From Promethearchaeota archaeon (GTDB taxonomy: Archaea > Asgardarchaeota > Heimdallarchaeia > Hodarchaeales > Hodarchaeaceae), in the NCBI GenBank assembly GCA_048938105.1, contig JBHLMN010000024.1, positions 22,413-86,412 on the forward strand: a stretch of 64,000 nucleotides of DNA, read 5' to 3'. Below the pieces are notes generated by a model. That model had not been told where the DNA came from and did not search any database. It worked only from the letters and a program-made list of their open reading frames with translations. A program made the translations under genes and the position numbers. Positions 20,304 to 33,955 of this stretch are shown in pieces (position 1 is the first letter of the stretch; the number at the start of each line of letters is the position of its first letter).

Positions 20304-21164
20304 TTGCAAATCCAACATATGATTTCAAAACCCGCAATTGGGAAATCGCTTAATCAAGATTGTATCGGTGCAAGTGAGACTGGAATCTGGCTTCTTGATG
20401 GCATTTCGGAAGTTAGAAATCTATCAATAAAAAATGATGAAAATGCTGTTTTTTGGTTTGTAAATAGAATCAATGCGTATCTATCGCAATATCTTGATTA
20501 TCACGACCTCACAATAACTGAAATTCTAATAGCTGCTATTAAGGAAATTAAAGAGGAGATCACATCTCTTATTACTGTTGATATTAATTCTTTACAATAC
20601 AATGAACACCCCTCTGCTTCTATTATAATTGCTCGAAATATCCAAGATGAAAAACTTGAGATTTTTTCTTTAGGAGATTGTCTGGCATATCTTCGGACAT
20701 CAAACCAAGAGATATTAATTCAAAACCATGAATTAAAAAGAATTGAAGAGCAATTTCGAGACAAAATTCTCCAAAAAAAGAAAACTTATCCCCAAATGAG
20801 TCACAAAGATTTTTTAGCCAAAATAAAGATAATTGAGAGGTTGAAATACCTTCGAGATGACCTTTATCAAAACGACAAGTATAATGTCCTAAATTTAGAC
20901 TCTGTTATGATTAGTAAAGGACAATTATCAGTTTATCAATCCATTAATACAATCCTATTATTGAGTGACGGATTTTCACGTGTAATTGATACTTATCATC
21001 TGTTCAAAGATTATAATGACTTACTTGTGAACCTAAAGGAGCAGGGAGTAGAACAAATATATGAAACTATGCGTGAGATTGAACAGCGTGACCAGAATGT
21101 CCAACAATTTCCCCGTTTAAGAGTATCAGATGATGCTTCTTTGATCCTAGCCTTTCTTGAATAA
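20304..21164 (+). CDS. PP2C-like (PPM) phosphatase domain protein
   Basis: NQD, LLDG, SLGDC, LLSDGF, SDDAS metal-binding motifs. Confidence 0.8.
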   Translation: MQIQHMISKPAIGKSLNQDCIGASETGIWLLDGISEVRNLSIKNDENAVFWFVNRINAYLSQYLDYHDLTITEILIAAIKEIKEEITSLITVDINSLQYNEHPSASIIIARNIQDEKLEIFSLGDCLAYLRTSNQEILIQNHELKRIEEQFRDKILQKKKTYPQMSHKDFLAKIKIIERLKYLRDDLYQNDKYNVLNLDSVMISKGQLSVYQSINTILLLSDGFSRVIDTYHLFKDYNDLLVNLKEQGVEQIYETMREIEQRDQNVQQFPRLRVSDDASLILAFLE

Positions 21165-21234: not shown

Positions 21235-22236
21235 TTGAAGTTGAGTTTTATGAGTGAACTTTTACCTGAGATCCATCAATATAAAAAAATTATGGCGAAT
21301 TTGGACAAATCTTTTGTTGAAAAGGTTTTGAACTTTCTATCGGATGAAAATATCAAACATAAGGGGGGAGATTGGCTATACAAAACTATTCACGCTAATA
21401 CTGGCTGGGATTTCGTGTATTACTTCCCCAAACTTGCGATGATAATAAGAGATGATAAAACCATATTAAAAGTAATCAAAATTTTGTTAGAGAAGAAATC
21501 CTTTCCATCAAAGTTAAGGTTTTTTGCATATTACTTGCTTTACTCATTTCATCGGAATAACAAGGATTATTCAAAAGCAAAACAATTAGTAACAACCTAT
21601 TTTGGGGAATTTCAAAATGAACCATTATTTCATGTAACTAGGGCAACCATTTTATTTTCCTCAACTGATCCTGACGAGTTAGAACAAGCTATAAGCATAA
21701 GCCTGGAATTAATTCATCATGAAGCCTTTCAGGAGAATGTAGGCATTTATCAGACTTTTGCAAATGCGGTCATTCTTGGAATTGAACATGAAGTCGATTT
21801 AATTATTTCCAATAAATCTAAATATATGAACCAAGCATTAAAGCTGATTCAGAAAGCACTTACTCAGAAAAAATATGCTAAGTATTATTTCACCCTTGGA
21901 ATATTATTTTTTTATTCAGGTCAAGAAACCAAGAATATAACTAGTTTTAGGAAAGCTAAGCGAGCTATTCAACGAGCGATTGATGTAGAAGATTCCACTC
22001 GCAAAGATTATCCTTTGCGTTTGCTCGAATATCACAGCTATCTCGCGAGAATCGAAATGTACTCTGATTATCTCAGAATACATCATTCCCTCCAAGAATT
22101 CTCGATCACTCTCAAAGAAAATGTGCTAGAACTTGCTCAACAAATTTCAACACAATTTGGAATATCCGTAAGTGATTATATTGAAAATTTGGTAAAGATC
22201 GATACTGAACATCATCAGAGACATCATCAGCTTTGA
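21235..22236 (+). CDS. TPR-like helical repeat protein with C-terminal RHH-like domain
   Basis: Helical repeats (AKYYFTLG, AIQRAI); C-terminal FSITLKENVLELAQQISTQFGISVSDYIENLVK. Confidence 0.6.
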   Translation: MKLSFMSELLPEIHQYKKIMANLDKSFVEKVLNFLSDENIKHKGGDWLYKTIHANTGWDFVYYFPKLAMIIRDDKTILKVIKILLEKKSFPSKLRFFAYYLLYSFHRNNKDYSKAKQLVTTYFGEFQNEPLFHVTRATILFSSTDPDELEQAISISLELIHHEAFQENVGIYQTFANAVILGIEHEVDLIISNKSKYMNQALKLIQKALTQKKYAKYYFTLGILFFYSGQETKNITSFRKAKRAIQRAIDVEDSTRKDYPLRLLEYHSYLARIEMYSDYLRIHHSLQEFSITLKENVLELAQQISTQFGISVSDYIENLVKIDTEHHQRHHQL

Positions 22237-22439
22237 TTTGGTTCAGAAAAACTGGCACCAGATCGTTTAAAATTCTCATAGTAGATTAGACTACGCCTTA
22301 TCGCATCTTCAACAAATTTTTTTTTGTCATTATTAAAATAGTTGCCAAGATCTGGATATTTGGTAAAAAGAGTCTCGATTGCAGCAGCCAATCCGTCATC
22401 TATCCGAGGTCTAAACTTTTTATCTTGAATTTGGCTCAT
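22227..22439 (-). CDS. Ribbon-helix-helix DNA-binding protein
   Basis: FRPRIDDGLAAAIE...KKFVEDAIRR; 70 aa; GGTGAGG SD upstream. Confidence 0.7.
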   Translation of the reverse strand: MSQIQDKKFRPRIDDGLAAAIETLFTKYPDLGNYFNNDKKKFVEDAIRRSLIYYENFKRSGASFSEPNQS

Positions 22440-22483
22440 TACCTCACCTAAATCTGATTAGATTCTGTTTCCACTTTCTATAG

Positions 22484-22563
22484 ATGGGCTATATAAGGGA
22501 TATGAAATCCCGAGAATGGGATATGTTTATATAATGGGATAACCAATCCCATAAATGGGATAT
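22484..22563. promoter_or_regulatory. Divergent promoter with repeated GGGAT-N5-ATCCC operator palindromes
   Basis: GGGATatgaaATCCC 22497-22511; ATGGGATaaccaATCCCAT 22534-22552; half sites at 22484, 22516, 22555; TATA-like TTTATATA 22526-22533 and CTTATATAG on - strand 22489-22497. Confidence 0.65.
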
Positions 22564-22654
22564 CTTTGGGTTGATATGTGATCTTTCTCACTAAAACAAC
22601 TCATGTATTGTCCTAAAAACGAATATTAGCATCTTAATAGGAGAAATAGAATTT

Positions 22655-23950
22655 ATGGCACAATCAAAAGCAAATATCCCAAAAGCAATATTTCAGGCAC
22701 AAAAATTAGTCCAAGATGCGCGGTTGTATGATCATCAAGACCAATACCAGAAAGCAATTACTTATTACATGCATGCAACCAAAATATTCTTAGTACTACT
22801 GAAACGATACCCTCAGATACCCCTCCATAAGCAGCATGCTCAAGAGGTTCGACTGTGTCTGCAACGGGTACAACAACTTAAACCAATTTTAATGAATTCC
22901 ACACAATCAGCCAATCATCCCAAGACAGTACATATCAAATCAAAAGATGACCAAGAGTATGCTGAATTACGTGAGCGTATCCTTAGATGTCGGATCACTC
23001 CTAATCCTAGTCTCTCATGGGATGATATAATTGGTCTCGAAGAAGTTATCCACCAGATTCAGGAAACAGTCTTAGTCCCTCTTCAGCATCCCGAAATCTG
23101 GGAGAGTAGTATCAAACCATCCAGATCAATTCTCTTATTTGGGCCGCCTGGATGTGGGAAAACAAACTTAATTCGGGTACTAGCGGCAGAAATTGCCCCT
23201 ATACCTATCTTCAGTCCTCCAGCTGGGATTCTATTATCAAAATGGCATGGGGAAAGCCAGAAAATGATCCGGGCGTTGTATGAAACAGCTTGGGAACATG
23301 CCCCCTCGATCATTTTCATTGATGAATTTGATGGCATCTTTGGGTCAACCAACAATTCCCGAAGAAGAAATGGGGATTCAGAGGCATCTAGAATAACCAT
23401 TCAGATCCAAAAGGAGCTACAACAGTTTATGGATGGATTATACACCCCTTCGAGGAATGAAACAGTGACTATTGTCGCCACAAACTTCCCCCAGCGGTTA
23501 CAACTTGCTCAATTACGTCGTTTCGATAGGATTCTGTATATTCCACCCCCGTCTCCTTCCGCGATTGTCAAGATTCTTCAGCATTACTTTCGAAAAGTAT
23601 CTCATAATCTTGACGGCAATCTTCAATGGTTAGCACATCATGTTGTAAATAGGTATACCCCTGATGAAATACAAAAAATTTGTACTGGAGCCTATTATCA
23701 GGCACTTAGTAGGTCAGACAAGACTAAGCTCCCCCCACAAGTAACTTTGAAGGACGTTGCGCATTGTAAGGTAAGATTAAAACCTTTACTTCGATTTAAA
23801 GAAACTATTGGGGTGAGTACAATATTGTTTAGGATATGGAATGAGACCTTTGGGAGACCACCAATTGAATATCCAATGCAGCCTTGGGAAGAAGAAGATG
23901 TAAACCCCACTTTGTTGCTTAATCTGCAAAAGGCTCGAGAAAATCGCTAG
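22655..23950 (+). CDS. MIT-domain Vps4-like AAA+ ATPase
   Basis: N-terminal MIT helices (A..YD....YQKAITYY); GPPGCGKT, SKWHGESQK pore loop, IIFIDEFD, ATN.P, RRFDRILYIPPP, C-terminal WNETFG. Confidence 0.88.
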   Translation: MAQSKANIPKAIFQAQKLVQDARLYDHQDQYQKAITYYMHATKIFLVLLKRYPQIPLHKQHAQEVRLCLQRVQQLKPILMNSTQSANHPKTVHIKSKDDQEYAELRERILRCRITPNPSLSWDDIIGLEEVIHQIQETVLVPLQHPEIWESSIKPSRSILLFGPPGCGKTNLIRVLAAEIAPIPIFSPPAGILLSKWHGESQKMIRALYETAWEHAPSIIFIDEFDGIFGSTNNSRRRNGDSEASRITIQIQKELQQFMDGLYTPSRNETVTIVATNFPQRLQLAQLRRFDRILYIPPPSPSAIVKILQHYFRKVSHNLDGNLQWLAHHVVNRYTPDEIQKICTGAYYQALSRSDKTKLPPQVTLKDVAHCKVRLKPLLRFKETIGVSTILFRIWNETFGRPPIEYPMQPWEEEDVNPTLLLNLQKARENR

Positions 23951-23961
23951 GGGGAAGGGGA

Positions 23962-26900
23962 ATGTCTACACAGGAAGATCACGATGTTATTCTTGCTCAA
24001 CAAGAAGAAGAAAAGATAGAAGAAGAGGTGGAAGATAATGAAGAAGAAACTAACCTTGAAGAGGATCCTTCAGAGATTGATATTGATGAGGTGGCTCCAA
24101 GAATAGAAGTGGAGGAGCTGCTTGCAGAGCATGAAATGCTTGAACAAGAGTTCGAGGAATTTTTACCTCCTGATACTATTCTTACTTCTGAAGAGGAAGG
24201 AACGGAAGTAGAAGACTTTGATGAGGACATTGATGATAATTCAGCGGATACTATATGTATAGGCCAAGATACATTGGTTCTAGAGGCAAAATTTGAGGTT
24301 CAAGAGGCGGAGGACGAGGAGCTAGAGACTTATGAACTAATAGAAACTGAGCAGGAAATCCAAGACGAAGAGCCAGATTCGTCAGACCAACAAGAAGTGG
24401 ACATAAGTCTCGGGAATGACATTTGTGGAGAGGTTGAGGAAGATTCATCAATTTTAGAGGAAGATCAGGAAATTGAGTTTTCCAACATCAATCAAAATAT
24501 AGAGGAACTGCCAATTGAAGTAGAAGAAGCTGAATTAGAAATACATCAATTGGAAGAAGAGCTAGAAGAAGAGCTGATAACAGAATAGGTCAAGGTTATT
24601 GAAGATGAAGGGATCGAGGAATTTGAGGACATAAAACATCTAGAAGAAAGTCAGATAGAAGAAAATGATAATTTTGGTGATACAGATTGGGAATATGAAA
24701 CATTAGAGGAGCAAGATCTTTGTAATCAGGAAACACTGGATAGTGATACCACAAATTCTACTTCAATTGAAGCAATGGAACACGAAGAAACGAAAATTGA
24801 TCAGGAATTAGAAGAAAATCCATTAATTACTCTTGAATACCCGTTTGCTGAAGAATTAAAAGAGCAAGATAAATATACGCAAGAAATAACATGTGATCAG
24901 GAATTTGAGGAAATATCCATTAATGAACTTGAAAATCAAACTGAAGACGGTAGTGAGGAACTAGAAGAGCTGGAAAAAACAATTGAAATAGATGAGAACG
25001 TTGCAACACTTGAAACAGTCGAAATCACAAATGATGTGCAACCAGAAGATGAGAAACAATCTCAACAATCTATTACACTGACAAAAGGGCATACACTAAG
25101 TGATATTGGGAAAACTTCAATCCAGCAATTATTCAATATACTCAATAATCGATCTATAGAAACAAAGTATTCTGAGGATGTTCTTAAACCGCGATCCTTT
25201 ACTCTGACAATCAAAGATGAGGATTTTCACGATTTTTCTCTTAATTCACTAGATACCGAAATAAGCACCTTAGAGAAAATGTTGAAAGAAGTTGAATCAC
25301 CACGCTTGTTAACCCAATTTCATCCACAGATAGAGGATGATGTAAAGCAATCTCTTGAGGTTCAAACGTTTCAAAGTATTCATGAACATGATAGTTCATT
25401 AGAACTTGTTTCTCAAGGCCCCTCACTTCCCGAACCGCCTCCATATGATTTTCAAGCTGAATTGGACGAACTAGAGGAAGAACAGGATAGTTTAACAAGA
25501 GAACAACTTCTAAAATCGTTTGAAAGGGCGCAATGGACACAAATGACTGCTAATTTAGATTTAGCAAAGCAGAAATTATCTTTCATAAAAGCATACACAT
25601 CACATACTCCAAAAGCAGACCCTCCTCAAAAAATGACACAGACCTTTCAGAACAAGCAGATCTCCCGAAATAAAGCAGATACAGAAGAACAGATCAAAAA
25701 AGAAAAAACTGAATCAAATTTAGAGAAAAAAAATTATTTTAAACCTCTAGAAGAAACACTAATAGAACAAAATATTGAAAGGAAAAGACAATCGATAATA
25801 CAAACTGGGTATAAAGCCATAAAAACTGGAAAACATTCAGATTTGAGAGTGTTTGCAAGAAAGTGGAATGAACACATAACCAGAGGAGGAAGGCCAACAA
25901 CTAAAATGTGGGAAATGTATAACAAGATACAGGAGAAGTACGATAAACCAATAGTCTTATACAAAGAAAGTGGAAATAATACCTATCGAATGAGCATATG
26001 TGGAAAATTATTTTCTCAATTAGATTCAGGTAACATATCAGCGAGACAAATTAACAAAATATTTGAATATTGGCAAATTCAAAGTGATATGAAAAAGGGA
26101 ATTAAACCTTTTTTGGAAGTAACAATAAAAAATCCCACAACTGGAAAAACGGATACGTTTTGGATTCCAAATTCTAAACAAAAGGCATGGAACCCATATA
26201 AAGCAAAGAATCGTGAGTTTTTCAATATTCGTAGTTCTTCTTGGGCTAAAATCACAGAATTCCTAGCAACTAAGATTCAATTAAATGAGAAGGACATAAA
26301 ATTATATAATGAGATTGAGAAATCTCTTAGAAAAAGATACCCAAAACTGGGGATTCAAACAGTTAATGGACCTTTTACGACTTTGGGGAATCAAAAAGTA
26401 CTGTTTAAAAATATATATAAGTTGAATTACCCAAAAGACGTTATAGATGAAGCAATTAAACTAGCTTTTTGGAAATACGCTGGTACTCATGCTTATAATG
26501 ATACAAACACTGTTACTTCAAGAAAAGAAATTACACAGATGAGAATAGAATTCTCTAATTTTGGAAATTCAATTCAAAAAAACAAGATAACTCAAAGAAT
26601 ATACAACTTGAGTGTGGACGGTTCAGTCTCACATCAGAATTGGACTGATGATCTCGAATCATCAATTAAAAGTTTAGATCCAAATTTTATTATATATGAA
26701 AATGTTAATGGCGAGATTAATGGAATATCTGCCCCACATCTAGTCAGAAAGTTCAAGGATTTATTATTCTTTAAAGATAAGTATTCTGTAAAGAGTGCTG
26801 GTAGAATGTTCAATAATCTGATAGCATTAGCAGATTACGAACCACCATTAAATTTAGGTACTTATTATTGGAAAAAATTGTTTCCTAAAAATACTGATCT

Positions 26901-28380
26901 TCATCAATTAGGAATTCCAGAAGCTTATCAAACAACGTTTATATATCGTGATACAACCTCATCGGGGGCAGTTGGTAGGGCAAGATGGATGAATGACTTT
27001 CGAAATGAATTTTTGATGCCATTAACTGATTGGCTTAAAGTTTCCGAACTAAAAGACTTTTCTAAGCAAATTACCATTCAAAATCCTAGTACAGGAAAGA
27101 AATATAGAAAACGGTTCAATAATTTGAGTGCATATTTGAAATTTCAAGCAGGACTTGGTGAATGGAAAGATGAAAGATGGCAAGGTGTGTATAATAAAAT
27201 ATACGTTCTAAAATATGATCTTGAGCACATTTTGGCTATTACTAAATATGTCAGTGAATCAGTTCAGTTACCTGGAAGAGATAATAGAACTGGAAAAGAT
27301 AAGGAGAAGTTATTGGAATTCTTTCAAACGACTAATGCGGTAAAAATCATAAATATTGTACCTGAATCTAAAAATTTCAAATTCATTGTAAGTTTGAGTT
27401 CTAGAAAACAAGCATTAATGAAATTCTATAATAATCTTACTAAAAATAGTTCAGTTGGGGCAAAAATTGTCCAAGCACACCTTACATCTGTTCTGGAGAG
27501 TTGCATACCATTAACTATAGATCCATGGACAATACAAAAAGCAGTAAATCACAAACACTTAATAAAGGCACCTGAAAGTCTTGCGGAATTATTAACTGAA
27601 GAAGGTGACGGCCCGATAAATCCATTCTGTTCTGGCCTTTTTATGGATTCGAATTTTAGAGAAATTTGTAATACCGTTCATGATATCAATTTTAACATGA
27701 AATTTCTTCAGTATCCTAATACTGAGAGAGATTATATCATAACCCAATCAATGAAATCAAGGAAAATGGCTGATACTTATGGAGAATCTTTTACTGCAGC
27801 AAGTATTCCTGATGTTGTAACAAGTTATCAAAAAAATAGTGGTTCTACCGAATTGTTATTTATAAAAGTTGTAAGTAATAATATTTTTAATCATTTAGAA
27901 TCTGATATTAGTGAAATATTAAAGACTAATTATGATTCAAAAGATCCTTTTCGAATTTTCACTGCATTAGTTTTTTTAAAATCAGATCTGAATACTCTCC
28001 CACTGAATTCTACAAAATACAATGAATTAATGCTTCTACTTCAAAATCAAAATGCAGATGGATTAATTAATATTGAAATACCAGATTTACAAACAAAAGG
28101 ATTAAATCGTTTTGGTGAAATATGGGCATCTCTCAAAAATGAATACATAACAAATGAAATATATGAGGAATCCAGAAATGAATTTTTGAAAGATCCTGAT
28201 TCCTTTAAAAATCAATTAATCGAGGAAGTAATGAAAAAAATCAATAGTTTCCAAAAACTCAATCCTGTTGACCGTAAAACGGTAGAAGAAGGGCTTGAAA
28301 TAATAGATTTTGAAGCAACTACAAGAACAGAGTTTATTATGAACACTCTAATGAATTATTTCAGTCTTGCTTTACTTTGA
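23962..28380 (+). CDS. Giant protein (~1470 codons) with Glu/Asp-rich N-terminus and unique basic C-terminal region, interrupted by one in-frame TAG at 24586-24588
   Basis: ORFs 23962..24588 and 24775..28380 are in the same frame; the gap translates without stops as more acidic sequence (VKVIEDEGIEEFEDIK...). Confidence 0.7.
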
Positions 28381-28498
28381 ATAAAAGGGAGAGAAGTAGT
28401 TTATATATACCAATCAATAAATAGATACATTAATTTCTTATTTGTATATTATTTTCATAAGCGAAAATAAAGAGAATTGAACAACTGGAGGAACGAAA

Positions 28499-29680
28499 AT
28501 GGAATTAACCCCCGAAGAGCAAGATATGGCTGCTGGGAAGTATGGAAAGGCTACACAAACAGCGATGGAAATATTAGTCTCACTTGGCGAGATTTATGGA
28601 GCTAAACGAATGATAGACATAACTTCGGTTCAAATTGCTGGTGTAAGTTATGCAAACTTAAATGAACCTGGCCTAGAATGGTTGGAAGAAATGGCTGAAG
28701 ATGGAAAAGTACGGGTATTTACCACACTTAATCCAGCAGGTATGGATCTTGAAGAATGGAAAAAATTAGCCATCAGTGAGGAGTTTGCTGAAAATCAAAT
28801 CCGGGTAGTAGAAGCATTCGGAAAATTAGGAGTTATAACAACTTGCAGCTGTACTCCATATCTTTACGGGAATCTACCTCATTTTGGCCAACACATTGCT
28901 TGGTCTGAGAGTAGTGCTGTGTGTTATGCAAACTCAGTATTAGGTGCACGAACGAATCGAGAAGGTGGACCAAGTGCTCTTAGTGCAGCTCTTGTCGGAA
29001 GAACACCTGAATATGGTTTTCACTTAGATGAAAACAGAAAACCAGAAGTAAAAGTAGATGTGAAAACAAAACTTGAAGGAACATTTCAATTTGGAGCTTT
29101 AGGAAAAGTCTTAGGGGATCGTCTCGGTAAAAAGATTTCTTATATTACCGGAATTCCCAAAGCTTCGGTTGAGGAGCTAAAATCATTTTGTGCATCATAT
29201 GCAACATATGGGGGAGTAGCATTATTCCATATGGAAGGCATTACGCCTGATCGAGTTGACACAATTCCTTCTGAAACCACAGAAGTCACTGAAGATGATA
29301 TGAAAAGCGCTATTGCAGATCTTACTGAAGATACAGAGATTGATTTCATAAGTTTAGGATGTCCACATGCTTCTCTAGCGGAATTGGAATATATTGCTAA
29401 AAAATTAGAGAATAAGAAAGTTAATCCTAACAAAGAGATATGGATAACAACAGCTCGACCTACTAAACAAATCGCAGATCGTATGGGTTTTACTAAAATG
29501 ATTGAAGATTCCGGAGCAAAAGTTGCTGCAGATACCTGCTGTGTTGTAGCTCCCATTAAAGGACGATTCCATGGATTAGCATCAGACTCAGCTAAAATGT
29601 GCTATTATGGATCTGGTAGGAATAAATTCTCAGTCAAACTGATGTCAGTAGATGAATGTATAGAGGAGGCCTTAAAATGA
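28499..29680 (+). CDS. Aconitase X catalytic subunit (phosphomevalonate dehydratase large subunit)
   Basis: TLNP, CSCTPY, WSESSAVCYANSVLGARTNREGG, GCPH, DTC; MVA operon context. Confidence 0.92.
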   Translation: MELTPEEQDMAAGKYGKATQTAMEILVSLGEIYGAKRMIDITSVQIAGVSYANLNEPGLEWLEEMAEDGKVRVFTTLNPAGMDLEEWKKLAISEEFAENQIRVVEAFGKLGVITTCSCTPYLYGNLPHFGQHIAWSESSAVCYANSVLGARTNREGGPSALSAALVGRTPEYGFHLDENRKPEVKVDVKTKLEGTFQFGALGKVLGDRLGKKISYITGIPKASVEELKSFCASYATYGGVALFHMEGITPDRVDTIPSETTEVTEDDMKSAIADLTEDTEIDFISLGCPHASLAELEYIAKKLENKKVNPNKEIWITTARPTKQIADRMGFTKMIEDSGAKVAADTCCVVAPIKGRFHGLASDSAKMCYYGSGRNKFSVKLMSVDECIEEALK

Positions 29681-30066
29681 AGCTAACAGGTAGAAAAATT
29701 TACCACGGAAAGACTGAAGGGGAAGCTCTAGTTACTAAAGACAGTATCTCGTTTTATGGCGGAGTAGACCCAGAAACAGGGATAGTAGTCGAAAAGGGTC
29801 ATGAATTAGAAGGTGTGAACACTACAGATAAAATACTTGTGTTTCCAACAGGTAAAGGGTCAACGGTTGGCTCCTATGTAATCTATCAAATGGCAAAAAC
29901 AGGAAAAGGGCCTAAAGCCCTTATCCTTCAAGAATGCGAAGCAATTGTAGCTGTTGGTTGCATAATCTCATCGATCCCTTGTGTGGATCAGATTGATGTA
30001 ACCCAGATCAAAACAGGAATGAATCTGACCGTGGATGGCGATAAAGGCGAAGTTGTGATAAAATAA
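29677..30066 (+). CDS. Aconitase X swivel subunit, DUF126 (phosphomevalonate dehydratase small subunit)
   Basis: ISFYGGVDPETG, GKGSTVGSY; ATGA overlap with the large subunit. Confidence 0.92.
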   Translation: MKLTGRKIYHGKTEGEALVTKDSISFYGGVDPETGIVVEKGHELEGVNTTDKILVFPTGKGSTVGSYVIYQMAKTGKGPKALILQECEAIVAVGCIISSIPCVDQIDVTQIKTGMNLTVDGDKGEVVIK

Positions 30067-30115
30067 TCTATAATAATCACTCTTTTTTTTTCGTATTATT
30101 TGTTTATTAAAGCCT

Positions 30116-33100
30116 TTAGCCCTTTTCTTCTTTATCACTCCATAATACATCTAACACCCGACAAATATCTATCAATCTCCAATTTTCATACGTTAGAGCT
30201 TTTCCTTTCATAAGACCCAGAGTACTTCTATTTGTTGATGGAAAAATATCTCGTAATATATTCTTAAAATCATCTGAATCAGAGAATTCTTTCATTAGTC
30301 TTATTACTTCGATGTATTTTGCGCTCTTGTTAATATTTTTGTGTTCAATTTCAATAATTTTGTTTTCCCAGAATGATAGCCTGTTCTCCCGAAACAACGC
30401 TTCTGGAATACTTGTCTTAAAGATCGAACGATTTAATAAATCATCATCCCACTTTCCTCTATATTTTGTCCCTATTAAAAGTCGCCTTAATCCCTCCGTT
30501 GTGAATATTTCAGTAATTTCATTAGGTCTTTTTATTTGTAAATCAAACTCCAAATTGTTTCTCTTTCTTGGATGGGTTTTTTTAAGCCCTATAAGGTTCA
30601 TCTCCTTTATATCAACTGATCTTTCAACAAATAAACACCTTAATTCTTGCAATTCTCTCATTCTAAATAAATAAATAGACGATTTACCAAGTAGAGCATT
30701 ATAATAAATACTTCCCCCTTGTCTCACTCCCTTTACGGGAATAAATGTTTTGGGATCATCTTGTGTAAAGCTCTTATTAAAACTTGTAATATTGGGATTG
30801 AAATGAAAAAATAGAAACATCCCAAATAAAGTTTGACCATGATTCATTTGATCCCAATTCAGTCCTTTTCTAGCATTTGAAATTAATAATTTAGAGGAAG
30901 GAGAAAAAGAACCCTTAACTCTCCTATTCGCTTTTTGTCTTTCTATTCTTACAGAGGGTCTTTTAATCTCCCATAACGTAGCTTTATAATCATAATCCCC
31001 ATAAGCTTCTGAAGATGGGGAAATTACCATCCCATCAACACCCTGACCGTGTTCTCCTCCCAAATATAAACCATATACATATGAAAACAACGAAATTTCT
31101 CGTGGTGTTCTAGAATGAAAAACAAAGTATTTTTTATTTGAATTTCTAGACATTACCTTTTTTTTTTGACCAGTGTTACCCCAATTTACGCTAGAACCTT
31201 TTTTAAACCATTTGGATGCCATAGCAACTGATTTTTCCTCTGGGAATCCAATAATTCTGAATAATGAATAAATTGTTGGAATATAAGCTGCCCTAAGTCT
31301 CAAGTCATTTGTCATCCTTTTATTCGAATGCCACTTCCTAAATAATTTGCTACCATGATTAACATCTTCAGGAGCAGCTGCATATTCAAAAACATTGATT
31401 TTTAATTGGTTAATATTCCGTAATGTGTCAATTGGGTTATTGAAATATAATCTTGCACTTTCAGGGAAAACATCTTTTGAAATTCTAGGAATTCCACTGA
31501 GTTCTCTAGACCTCCACCGTTCACCTACATCAATCTGTGTGGTTAAATTGTTAAAAGAACATAAAAACATCGATGTTAATGTGACTGTTTTCATCAATAT
31601 ATCTGTGTGTGCTGATTCAGGAAAATGGTTTAATGGTTTACTTGGAGAGAGCCATAAATTTCTTCCAATATTATAAATCTCTTGAGTAATAGCCAAAAAT
31701 CTTGGATCATTTGCATCCATCAGATAATCGACAGCTAAAGATGCAATGCGTGATACAACATTTACAGATAACTCTAAGTTAGCCTTTGATAAAGCATTTT
31801 TCTCTGCCTTTCCAAACTGTAGTGCACCTCTATCATGCCTTCCTTCAATATCTGCGAATAATTCACCAAATTTTGTTTTAATTTTTTCCCTCATATTTCG
31901 CCTATCTATTCTCCCATCAATTATCACGCTTGGTGGTTTAATATTTAAAACGTCAAGAAATCCACCCTTTTTTGTAATTTCTTTGATCTTTTCTTTCTCT
32001 AATAGTCTTATAAGATTAATCATTGAAAGAAATCTTTCAGTAGTTCTTATTTCCAATAATGAATCTGTTATTTCTTTGAATTTTGTAAAACTGAATGTCT
32101 CAAATACTTTATTGAGTAAATGATTATTAACAAAACTCTTGATTGACATATTGGGGGAGATATTGATGTTTGGTTGAATAAATTCATTATGATAAGAACT
32201 AAACTCTAAAGACTTTGAAAACTTATAAAGTGTTGATAAATTAGTATCAACGATAGAACGTATTCCTGTTGAACCTTTAGTTGTACCTATTAACACTTTA
32301 ATATCAATAAAAGGAGATTTAAGTATGTATTCTAATCTCTCTAGATATTTCTCATTTTCTAGCGTGAGTTTTCTTTGAGAATCAAAAACTCGAATCAACT
32401 CTGATCTAACATCGTTGTGAATTGGTGATAAAACACCATTAATTCCTAAATCTTCCAAACTAGTTATTACTTCGCCAATTGAAGATTTTTCTGTATCCAC
32501 CAAAAGAAACAATCGAATGATATCATATTCCCTTTTAACCAGTTCATTTAATTCCCAATTTTTCAATAGATGAACATTGTCGATATGTCTTTCTCTTCTC
32601 ACTGATATCATTGTTAAAGCTTCATTGATATTCTTGGTTGCCTCATCTATAAGGTTGAAAGTCTGTTGAAAACTCATCAGATCATTATTTTCAAGATCTT
32701 CGTAGAAGTTAACACTAAATTTGTTGTTAAATTCTTTTTCTCTTAATACAACCTCTATTGCAATTCTTTTTGATCTATTTACACTCTTTGAGTCGGAATT
32801 CGTGAGTTTTGTGAACAGTTGTCCTTCAAGACTCTCCATGTCATTAAAATTAAAGAAGAGCGTCTTTACGGAATCTTCTCTTGATTGATTCTTTTGTAAT
32901 AGCTTAAACAACTGTTGATCTTTGTTTTTCATTTTGATTTTCTGTTCTTTTTCAAGTTGTTCAACAGATTTCTCGTTAGCAGCTTGTTGTGAATTTTCAA
33001 GTGACACAAGTTGTTGTAGTGTTCTTTCCTTTATGGACTCTTGGAACTGTGTTTCGTTTTCAGCAGACACGGGCTGTTGGGATATGTGGTTAGAACGTTC

Positions 33101-33246
33101 GATATTCCCATTTAGATCTTGCTGGATTAGTGTGGTTTCTTCTCTCTTTTGGAGATCAAGGTTTACCTCCTGACACCTCTCAATCTCTTTGATTTTTATT
33201 GTTTCTTTTGTTGGCTTTGAATAATGCTCTTTCTCTATTTTTGATT
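30116..33246 (-). CDS. 5'-truncated giant protein with PD-(D/E)XK-like motif; possible orphan effector cassette
   Basis: Frame stays open upstream of the annotated GTG (ESKIEKEHYSKPTKETIK...) up to the AcnX fragment, with no ATG; Gln/Glu-rich start; GVDGMVI...LWEIKR motif. Confidence 0.6.
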
Positions 33247-33612
33247 CACGCCCATTTTCCTGAATGTTTTTACTACACGAAGTTGGTTTTTCCCGAATTC
33301 CTCACTGATGGCTAATTTTTTTCCATTCTTCAAGATCCATTCTGTACCAAAGTCAATAGACTAAGATTTTCCAGCAGGATTAAGAATGGTAAAAATTCGT
33401 ACTTTACCATCAATAGCCATTTCAGCTAACCATTCTAGGCCTGGTTCATTTAAGTTTGCATAACTTACACCTGCAATCTGAACCGAAGTTATGTCTATCA
33501 AGCGCTTAGCACCGTATATCTCACCAAGCGCGACTAATATTTCCATAGCTTTTTGTGTGGCTTTTCCATATTTCCCTGCTGCCATATCTTGTTCTTCAGG
33601 AGTTTGTTCCAT
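33247..33612 (-). pseudogene. Inverted, degenerate 5' copy of the AcnX/PMDh large subunit gene
   Basis: MEQTPEEQDMAAGKYGKATQ near-identical to the 28499 gene; 29-bp insertion 33341-33369; extra A in an A-run; homology continues (ISEEFGKNQLRVVKTFRKMGV) to ~33247. Confidence 0.9.
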
Positions 33613-33850: not shown

Positions 33851-33955
33851 ATAATAAGCAAAATTCCCTGTGTAGATCAAATTGATACAACTAAAATAAC
33901 AACTGGATCGAAAATAGTCCTAGATGCCAGCACTGGCGTGGTTGAAGTAGAATAG
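33851..33955 (+). pseudogene. 3' remnant of a second PMDh small-subunit gene
   Basis: IISKIPCVDQIDTTKITTGSKIVLDASTGVVEVE* aligns with IISSIPCVDQIDVTQIKTGMNLTVDGDKGEVVIK*. Confidence 0.85.

Follow-up and report, generated by a model that had tools for sequence, protein, structure and literature searches.

Our analysis suggests, with a probability that we put at roughly 55%, that the window (the whole 64,000-nucleotide stretch of Hodarchaeales DNA analysed here) carries a mobile cassette pairing a Vps4-like ATPase with a swappable giant effector, so far found in a single Hodarchaeales genus. It looks like an apparently new archaeal form of polymorphic toxin/effector system. The first-pass annotation, made from the letters of the window, had proposed a Vps4-linked toxin system; its observations are confirmed in part and its interpretation is partly supported. 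The cassette would comprise a small, divergently transcribed RHH-like gene, a Vps4 paralogue with MIT and AAA domains, and a giant effector with a constant front and an exchangeable rear. The features of the window are as follows.

20304 to 21164, + strand: PP2C-like gene, 286 aa (Pfam PP2C_2 at 23.5 bits, slightly below the cut-off)
21235 to 22236, + strand: 333-aa gene with a weak RHH_3-like C-terminus (weak Pfam matches only)
22227 to 22439, - strand: 70-aa RHH-like gene, divergent from the ATPase (by resemblance to a counterpart at locus L072)
22655 to 23950, + strand: MIT + AAA ATPase, 431 aa, a divergent Vps4 paralogue (by domains, motifs and a separate clade)
23962 to 24588, + strand: 208-codon acidic 5' end of the giant, closed by an in-frame TAG (24586-24588)
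24775 to 28380, + strand: main intact ORF of the giant (P0002), 1201 aa
25171 to 25512, + strand: conserved junction block containing PPPYDF (25435-25452) and, after it, an acidic helix (alignment A2, 8 giants)
25578 to 25581, + strand: recombination breakpoint, where DNA homology to two other loci stops (blastn)
25582 to 28377, + strand: C-terminal module F1, with domain A at about 25792-26664 and a terminal domain at about 27547-28377
30116 to 33070, - strand: ORF2, a 5'-truncated member of a second giant family (GTG start; the open frame reaches 33301)
33247 to 33612, - strand: inverted AcnX-L fragment (residues 1-112), a rearrangement scar (77% by tblastn, and 78% by blastn to 28492-28826)
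33851 to 33943, + strand: C-terminal remnant of AcnX-S preceding UbiX (31 aa aligned at 58% by tblastn)

The ATPase was found to share the main properties of Vps4/CdvC. Pfam searches matched its AAA domain (E = 6e-27) and, at the N-terminus, a MIT domain at 29.0 bits (E = 1.2e-6), slightly below the cut-off of 30; the orthologues in its clade carry a 'MIT (weak)' flag. Residues 4-316 of human VPS4B match its residues 2-312 (phmmer), its single AAA cassette retains Walker A and B, the KWxGES pore loop 1 and the RRF arginine fingers, and its C-terminal FRxWNxxFG helix aligns with canonical Vps4. Across the ATPases of alignment A3, the motifs GPPGCGKT, IIFIDEFD, SKWHGES and RRF vary little or not at all, and comparison with the orthologue in the sister genome G059 gives a dN/dS of 0.16, both of which count for a functional ATPase. 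It differs from Vps4/CdvC, however, in an extra conserved C-terminal tail (GRPPIEYPxxxWE), in having no ESCRT-III neighbour but a giant acidic protein as its constant neighbour, and in falling into a separate long-branched clade. In an ML tree the giant-linked ATPases stand apart on long branches (support 98/97), outside the tight canonical Asgard Vps4 clade; the phylogenetic check proposed in the first-pass annotation thus came out in its favour, as the ATPase does not group with housekeeping Vps4. Its remark that no ESCRT-III gene lies beside the ATPase extends to the whole window, which holds no Snf7 gene; the genome's Snf7 matches are on contigs C11 and C40 only, and a canonical Snf7-Snf7-Vps4 locus is kept on another contig. 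From its sequence, the ATPase appears to be a catalytically intact but fast-evolving Vps4 paralogue. A passage in Makarova et al. 2024 (PMC11188069) describes diverged, fast-evolving Hodarchaeota Vps4 paralogues outside the main Asgard clade and unlinked to ESCRT genes, which are probably the same as the ATPase clade of the window or its sister clade; that passage mentions no linked giant, junction motif or cassette swapping, all of which were found here.

At a membership threshold of E<=1e-60, the ATPase clade is present in 7 of 21 genomes of one Hodarchaeales genus and in 0 of 378 other Asgard genomes. A same-strand giant with the PPPYDF motif directly follows all ten intact clade ATPases (the window, G059, two loci in G054, G060, G061, G062, L072, L074 and L075), starting 6-64 bp downstream or overlapping the ATPase end. 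The start at 23962 agrees with the 11-bp spacing first reported for the window, and the expectation that a gene with an acidic N-terminus and a variable C-terminus always follows this ATPase held at every intact locus. ATPase and giant occur together in 6 of the 21 genus genomes and neither occurs in 12; in G066 the motif is matched only weakly and in part. ATPase remnants lie next to two further giants, which adds to the linkage. Two PPPYDF giants have no ATPase upstream, and this counts against the effector reading. So does the restriction of all these loci to one genus, which makes them less than fully independent of each other. Homologues are named Hodarchaeales or Heimdallarchaeota in the databases, in line with the Asgard setting recognised at the outset.

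The cassettes lie in many unrelated genomic contexts. Between the window and G059, dS is 0.24 for the ATPase vs 0.49 for canonical Vps4, and this difference together with the unrelated contexts counts for mobility of the cassette. Upstream of the G059 ATPase there is a 69% identical copy of the PP2C-like gene, which travels with the cassette in that genome, along with a 68-aa remnant of the 333-aa gene. The 70-aa gene has a 93% identical copy at the same position in L074 and no Pfam match of its own; its C-terminal half resembles its 132-aa counterpart at L072 (21% identity overall), which matches RHH_1 at 25.3 bits vs a cut-off of 20.5. No tRNA gene was found in the window.

Each giant consists of an acidic, low-complexity N-region of about 220-570 aa, a junction of ~100 aa with the invariant motif PP(P/S)YDF, a ~40-aa linker and a C-terminal module of 425-980 aa from one of at least eight families that are unrelated by BLAST and alignments. 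A profile of the junction found 15 proteins among 5.8 billion. The window and G059 share 92% DNA identity over 22638-24817 (the ATPase and the first 850 nt of the giant) and 75% from there up to 25578, beyond which there is no homology and the C-termini are unrelated; homology to L075 stops at 25581. The giants thus have the constant N-terminal body and recombined C-termini of polymorphic toxins. The same layout of a constant 5' gene body with C-termini exchanged at a conserved junction is known from CDI, Rhs and LXG systems (Zhang et al. 2012, PMC3482391), as are toxin-partner gene pairs and orphan cassettes with their own partner gene. Unlike those systems, the giants start with an acidic disordered stretch that contains no recognised secretion domain, and they are preceded by a gene for a dedicated Vps4-like ATPase. 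Their C-terminal modules are also very large and mostly fall outside known families, and no candidate immunity gene lies next to the copy in the window. In archaea, polymorphic toxin systems of the classical kind are reported to be rare to nearly absent (PMC3482391).

The window's own giant is not the ~1470-codon gene that had been proposed, since an in-frame TAG at 24586-24588 splits the frame. TAG terminates 19% of long ORFs, the ATPase gene included, and PylS was not found, so we take this codon as a real stop, reject a pyrrolysine reading and count two intact ORFs, of 208 and 1201 codons. G059 has CAG at the same codon, and the nonsense mutation in the window is recent. The N-region is also interrupted by stops or frameshifts in G059, L075 and apparently L076. 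Some of the region may therefore be unnecessary or in decay, which counts against the effector reading. The described contrast between an acidic N-terminus and a basic C-terminus was confirmed, with a net charge of about -147 over the first ~550 residues and a net basic remainder. The N-terminus is acidic without a hydrophobic leader, and no signal peptide was found; searches for a known secretion or trafficking domain found no Pfam domain in any N-region, which counts against the effector reading. Further, the C-terminus is not unique as had been thought. F1 is 52-81% identical in relatives that adjoin AcnX without an ATPase, and its occurrence in proteins with neither the PPPYDF motif nor an ATPase also counts against the effector reading. 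AcnX lies directly downstream of the window's giant, with no immunity-like or partner gene in between, which is another point against that reading. The AlphaFold model of F1 has a pLDDT of 72.8. F1 gave no clear match to a nuclease, a toxin or another fold or family in Pfam, in PADLOC, by PDB profile or with Foldseek and VIA-align, and the Atlas feature search returned nothing for it.

Given the broken N-regions in four loci and the lack of a toxin domain in the window's proteins, one may ask whether the Vps4 paralogue instead belongs to a lineage-specific cellular machine with no conflict role, in which it remodels or disassembles giant scaffold assemblies and C-terminal variation is ordinary domain shuffling, or whether the window's copy is simply decaying. 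The wording 'fast evolving, subfunctionalized subfamily' in the passage on diverged Hodarchaeota Vps4 (Makarova et al. 2024, PMC11188069) would suit this idea. We nevertheless consider it very improbable: the C-terminus is wholly replaced between genomes whose ATPases are 92% identical, an orphan cassette carries its own copy of a partner gene, and the spread is patchy (7/21 genomes). All three properties are easier to reconcile with conflict genes than with a cellular machine.

The orphan cassette was found at the G061 locus, where a 269-aa ORF is 45% identical to the last 268 aa of that locus's own giant and lies beside a second copy of the partner gene. Within the C-terminal families F5 and F6, the gene downstream of the giant is homologous from locus to locus and the other flanking genes are not, giving each family its own candidate partner gene; that of F5 is a WD40-like propeller. 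The polymorphic architecture first proposed stands as regards the constant N-terminus, variable C-terminus, junction, orphan cassette and the partner genes of F5 and F6; the window's copy has no partner. Three F6 sequences share an invariant E...D...(D/E)xK pattern, and the C-terminus of another giant, P0016, has four HTH domains and LAGLIDADG_2 at 48 bits (Pfam); both count for modules that target DNA. Apart from the P0016 domains and the WD40-like partner, Pfam and PADLOC found nothing in any giant or partner gene, and a PDB profile search with the F6 module gave no match. No relation was detected among the F1, F5, F6 and ORF2 modules (hhalign).

Defence systems commonly combine a constant NTPase-linked module with variable effector domains. 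The cassette could accordingly be an intracellular antiviral or abortive-infection system, in which the ATPase senses or transduces an infection signal and sets a nuclease effector loose inside its own cell. The C-termini would then be interchangeable effector domains, and the partner genes would serve in regulation or sensing, not in immunity. Propellers like that of the F5 partner typically act as sensors or scaffolds, secretion signals are absent, the cassette is patchy and mobile, and PADLOC matched the AAA domain to IetA and TRIP13, although these matches are generic only. We regard this as unlikely, however, as no PADLOC model fits any giant or partner gene and no defence genes are common to the neighbourhoods of the different loci. 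Moreover, when an orphan C-terminal cassette comes with a partner copy of its own, this points to the turnover of toxin/immunity cassettes and not to a defence operon.

ORF2 provides a second standalone C-terminal cassette. It was correctly described as having no start of its own, with no ATG at the head of a frame open up to 33301, and as unrelated at its C-terminus to the first giant (BLASTP). Its homologues P0047 (83%, 1142 aa) and P0048 (54%, 1069 aa) have their own ATG and an acidic N-region; ORF2 begins exactly at the junction of the full-length P0047, and an N-region swap is seen in this family. On these alignments, ORF2 appears to be a 5'-truncated member of another cassette family. 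The PD-(D/E)XK-like motif noted in it was recovered as a D...ExK-type motif (GVDGMVISP...LWEIKR, 30962-31039), which both homologues retain. A search for a nuclease fold among the ORF2, F5 and F6 modules gave a faint Herpes_UL24 match (E = 0.2), the Atlas feature search with ORF2 gave Mrr-like leads that were all sub-threshold. Neither ORF2 nor F1 could be assigned to a toxin or nuclease by fold or family, which counts against the effector reading.

F1-type and ORF2-type giants always adjoin AcnX, and ORF2 is flanked by AcnX fragments and an inversion scar. These observations, the LAGLIDADG_2 domain and HTH array of one C-terminus and a cassette dS below that of housekeeping genes are what would be expected if the giants were selfish, homing-endonuclease- or transposase-like proteins that insert at preferred sites such as AcnX genes, with the ATPase as a chaperone or remodeller and C-terminal diversity reflecting different DNA targets. 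This seems highly unlikely to us: PPPYDF cassettes occur in many unrelated contexts, family-specific partner genes are unexpected for homing genes, and no terminal repeats, integrase or transposase catalytic domain were seen.

Rather we favour a swappable effector cassette, one copy of which, in the window, may have joined onto a giant gene already resident in the mevalonate cluster, upstream of AcnX. Rear modules would be swapped by recombination at the linker, sometimes together with a family-specific partner gene, leaving displaced cassettes behind; the modules may act on DNA or be toxic in some other way, and the partner genes may neutralise them. The ATPase may engage the junction or the acidic tail and thread it through its pore, so that the effector is activated, released or delivered. 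An AAA+ unfoldase encoded with polymorphic effectors is also known from ClpV (T6SS) and the Cdc48-like ATPase of PVC/eCIS, but those recycle phage-tail-like injection machines, and no such structural genes occur at the loci examined here. In the literature searched, we found no report of a Vps4-type ATPase linked to a polymorphic toxin system. More specifically, the Vps4 paralogue might be a motor dedicated to polymorphic toxins, driving a route native to archaea by which they are delivered or activated. Its MIT domain would read the PPxY-like PPPYDF and its pore would thread the acidic tail, so that the effector is either set free or loaded for export, perhaps into ESCRT-type vesicles; we hold this version to be improbable. 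A complex prediction for the MIT domain (residues 1-92) and the junction peptide scored 0.03, which weighs neither way on binding. A search for WW domains gave no match but, as its control stayed silent too, likewise carries no weight.

These data provide a candidate function for the Hodarchaeota Vps4 paralogues noted, in the passage published in 2024, as 'fast evolving, subfunctionalized'. They also supply at least eight large protein modules of no known family, each of which lends itself to an on/off comparison with and without its partner gene, and they single out the short, invariant PP(P/S)YDF as a sequence that the ATPase may bind. Some phylogenomic studies place the Hodarchaeales closest to eukaryotes. 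If the motor version were true, it would be a prokaryotic precedent for the recruitment of ESCRT-type ATPases by short proline-tyrosine motifs. The cassette itself would represent a second use of ESCRT-type machinery in a group that is frequently described as near eukaryotes.

The window's MIT+AAA ATPase and the giant, the large gene 3' of it, lie between UbiD and AcnX in a region framed by archaeal mevalonate pathway genes. Three further genes share this interval: one PP2C-like, one encoding 333 aa and, on the minus strand, one encoding 70 aa.

Genes of the window; GHMP kinase, UbiD, AcnX, UbiX and IDI2 are the archaeal mevalonate pathway genes that frame the region
17645, GHMP kinase
18616, UbiD
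22655-23950, MIT+AAA ATPase, between UbiD and AcnX
28499, AcnX large subunit (AcnX-L)
29656, AcnX small subunit (AcnX-S)
30116-33070, minus strand, ORF2, the second giant-family ORF, between AcnX-S and UbiX
33612-33247, minus strand, inverted AcnX-L fragment, beyond ORF2
33851-33943, AcnX-S remnant, beyond ORF2
34048, UbiX
34627, IDI2

The inverted AcnX-L fragment and the AcnX-S remnant at ORF2 indicate that the mevalonate cluster was rearranged around the giant genes. Separately, AcnX-L of five relatives (L066, L016, L078, L067 and L064) carries an insertion of 29-36 nt between the NPAG and MD codons, which is also present in the window's inverted fragment (33247-33612, minus strand) and absent from the intact copy (28499-29680). 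The insert folds as a stem whose changes are compensatory (TGGC/GCCA, TTAGC/GCTAA, AGTC/GACT and others), suggesting that this protein-coding gene contains a small intron of the BHB type. AcnX-L is split by gene callers into pieces of 85-101 aa and 312 aa.

Contig C11 harbors the genome's canonical Snf7-Snf7-Vps4 locus, and on C40 (3999-6054) a second Snf7 gene is paired with a Vps4-like gene whose match has two TAA stops. The window ATPase shares 31-32% identity with the Vps4 and Vps4-like proteins of these two contigs and retains the Walker A and Walker B motifs, the pore loop (KWxGES), arginine fingers and C-terminal helix, along with an extra conserved C-terminal tail (GRPPIEYPxxxWE). This tail (GRPPIEYPxxxWEEE, window 23830-23947) resembles the giant motif EPPPYDFxxELEEE and could act as a pseudo-substrate. 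In a maximum-likelihood tree, the ATPase fell in an 8-sequence clade (support 98/97) apart from housekeeping Vps4, as had been proposed from the sequence alone. Branch lengths reach ~1.2-1.7 for deeper members of this clade vs a median of ~0.05 in the tight clade formed by the canonical Vps4 of the genus. Of the 21 genomes of the genus, 7 have a member of the ATPase clade at E<=1e-60, and the 378 Asgard genomes outside the genus yielded none at this cut-off. The dN/dS of 0.16 against the sister genome (G059) indicates that the gene is under purifying selection. Makarova et al. 2024 (PMC11188069) described three Hodarchaeota Vps4 paralogues that have diverged and lack ESCRT neighbours, in a passage that mentions no gene linked to them. 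We also observed a third Vps4-like clade (425-489 aa; L037 in G053, L039 in G051 and L051 in G052), the sister of the giant-linked clade, that adjoins not a giant but a conserved protein of 292-294 aa whose hydrophobic N-terminus suggests that it is possibly membrane-bound.

A same-strand giant ORF lies 3' of the ATPase at every locus with an intact clade member (the window, G059, two loci in G054, G060, G061, G062, L072, L074 and L075), bearing out the linkage suspected in the first-pass annotation. The window giant begins 11 bp past the ATPase end, and spacing is -16 to +64 bp in five loci, 162 bp in L072 and 150 bp in L075. The ATPase-linked giants span 861-1500 aa, that of L075 being in two parts (378 + 947 aa). 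In G052, a broken ATPase is followed by an unrelated gene; at two giants the ATPase survives only in part, as a piece of 36 aa in G054:C158 and as an ORF of 99 aa with just the MIT domain in L073, and two giants have no ATPase. Further, a small divergent gene (60-133 aa) lies upstream in the window, L071, L072, L074 and L075, and that of L072 scores as RHH_1.

The window giant had been read as a single ORF of ~1470 codons, which does not hold because an in-frame TAG at 24586-24588 interrupts it. In this genome TAG serves as an ordinary stop, ending 19% of long ORFs as well as the ATPase gene itself, and a search of the genome did not find PylS. The sister genome reads CAG at the matching codon and has lesions of its own, codon 4 being a TAG and a +1 insertion lying close to codon 102; the differing lesions indicate that they arose recently and independently, within the first 100-210 codons of both genes. 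The window giant keeps an intact 1201-codon ORF (24775-28380).

All giants share an acidic front (~220-570 acidic residues, +13 to +45 net acidic charges per 100 aa) and a block of ~100 aa ending in LPEPP(P/S)YDFxAELE, in which P, Y, D and F are invariant. A profile of this block matched only 15 proteins among 5.8 billion, and the two with a source name are labelled Hodarchaeales or Heimdallarchaeota. Past a linker of ~40 aa, the rear modules belong to at least 8 families that are unrelated to one another, and sub-domains are shuffled further, so the anticipated architecture of constant N-terminus and variable C-terminus is borne out. DNA identity between the window and the sister genome is 92% over 22638-24817 and 75% on to 25578, past which there is no DNA similarity between the two; homology to L075 stops at 25581. 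The dS between window and sister genome is 0.24 for the ATPase, half that of canonical Vps4 (0.49), and the cassette is therefore younger than the split of these genomes.

Rear modules are thus exchanged between loci, but the window's own module (F1), likewise expected to be variable, is conserved at 52-81% identity in three proteins (P0003, P0004 and P0005). These lack the PPPYDF motif and an ATPase and are encoded directly upstream of AcnX, and the window giant therefore looks like a fusion of an ATPase-linked front to a giant gene already resident at the AcnX locus. A search of 1.84 billion cluster representatives gave 25 relatives for F1, its structure model reached a pLDDT of 72.8, and no search returned a known fold. 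Several other proteins of the genus, 600-1200 aa long, share domain A of F1 (window ~25792-26664) at 23-28% identity (C9:70097-70759 and C9:38166-38780 in the same genome; G049, G054, G059 and G066), which suggests that the shuffled giant proteins form a wider family.

ORF2 has full-length homologs, P0047 (83%) and P0048 (54%), each with its own ATG, an acidic N-region and an ORF2-like position beside AcnX. P0047 and P0003, an F1 protein, match at 60% identity over the first 143 residues of the former and residues 71-192 of the latter and are unrelated thereafter, showing that rears have been swapped behind a second constant front (N2) as well. The ORF2 frame opens near this P0047/P0003 junction, where its homology to P0047 begins, and ORF2 is a displaced, 5'-truncated cassette.

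Finally, one rear-module variant contains four HTH domains and LAGLIDADG_2, the F6 family has an invariant E...D...(D/E)xK pattern, and F5 and ORF2 have similar motifs; judging from motifs only, the rear modules would be nucleases. The two F5 giants (G054a and G060) are followed by homologous WD40-like partner genes (297 and 299 aa) and the two F6 giants (G054b and G061) by homologous partners of 220-232 aa; apart from these, no flanking genes are common to the F5 or F6 loci. In G061 the order is giant, partner, a 269-aa ORF and a second partner copy, and the 269-aa ORF is 45% identical to the last 268 aa of its own giant. This arrangement matches the layout of polymorphic toxin loci, with a toxin-immunity pair and an orphan cassette. 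We infer that the rear modules would be toxic and the partners would confer immunity, with a mode of action for the ATPase that may be the one first proposed, a co-opted Vps4 that processes, activates or exports large variable effectors.
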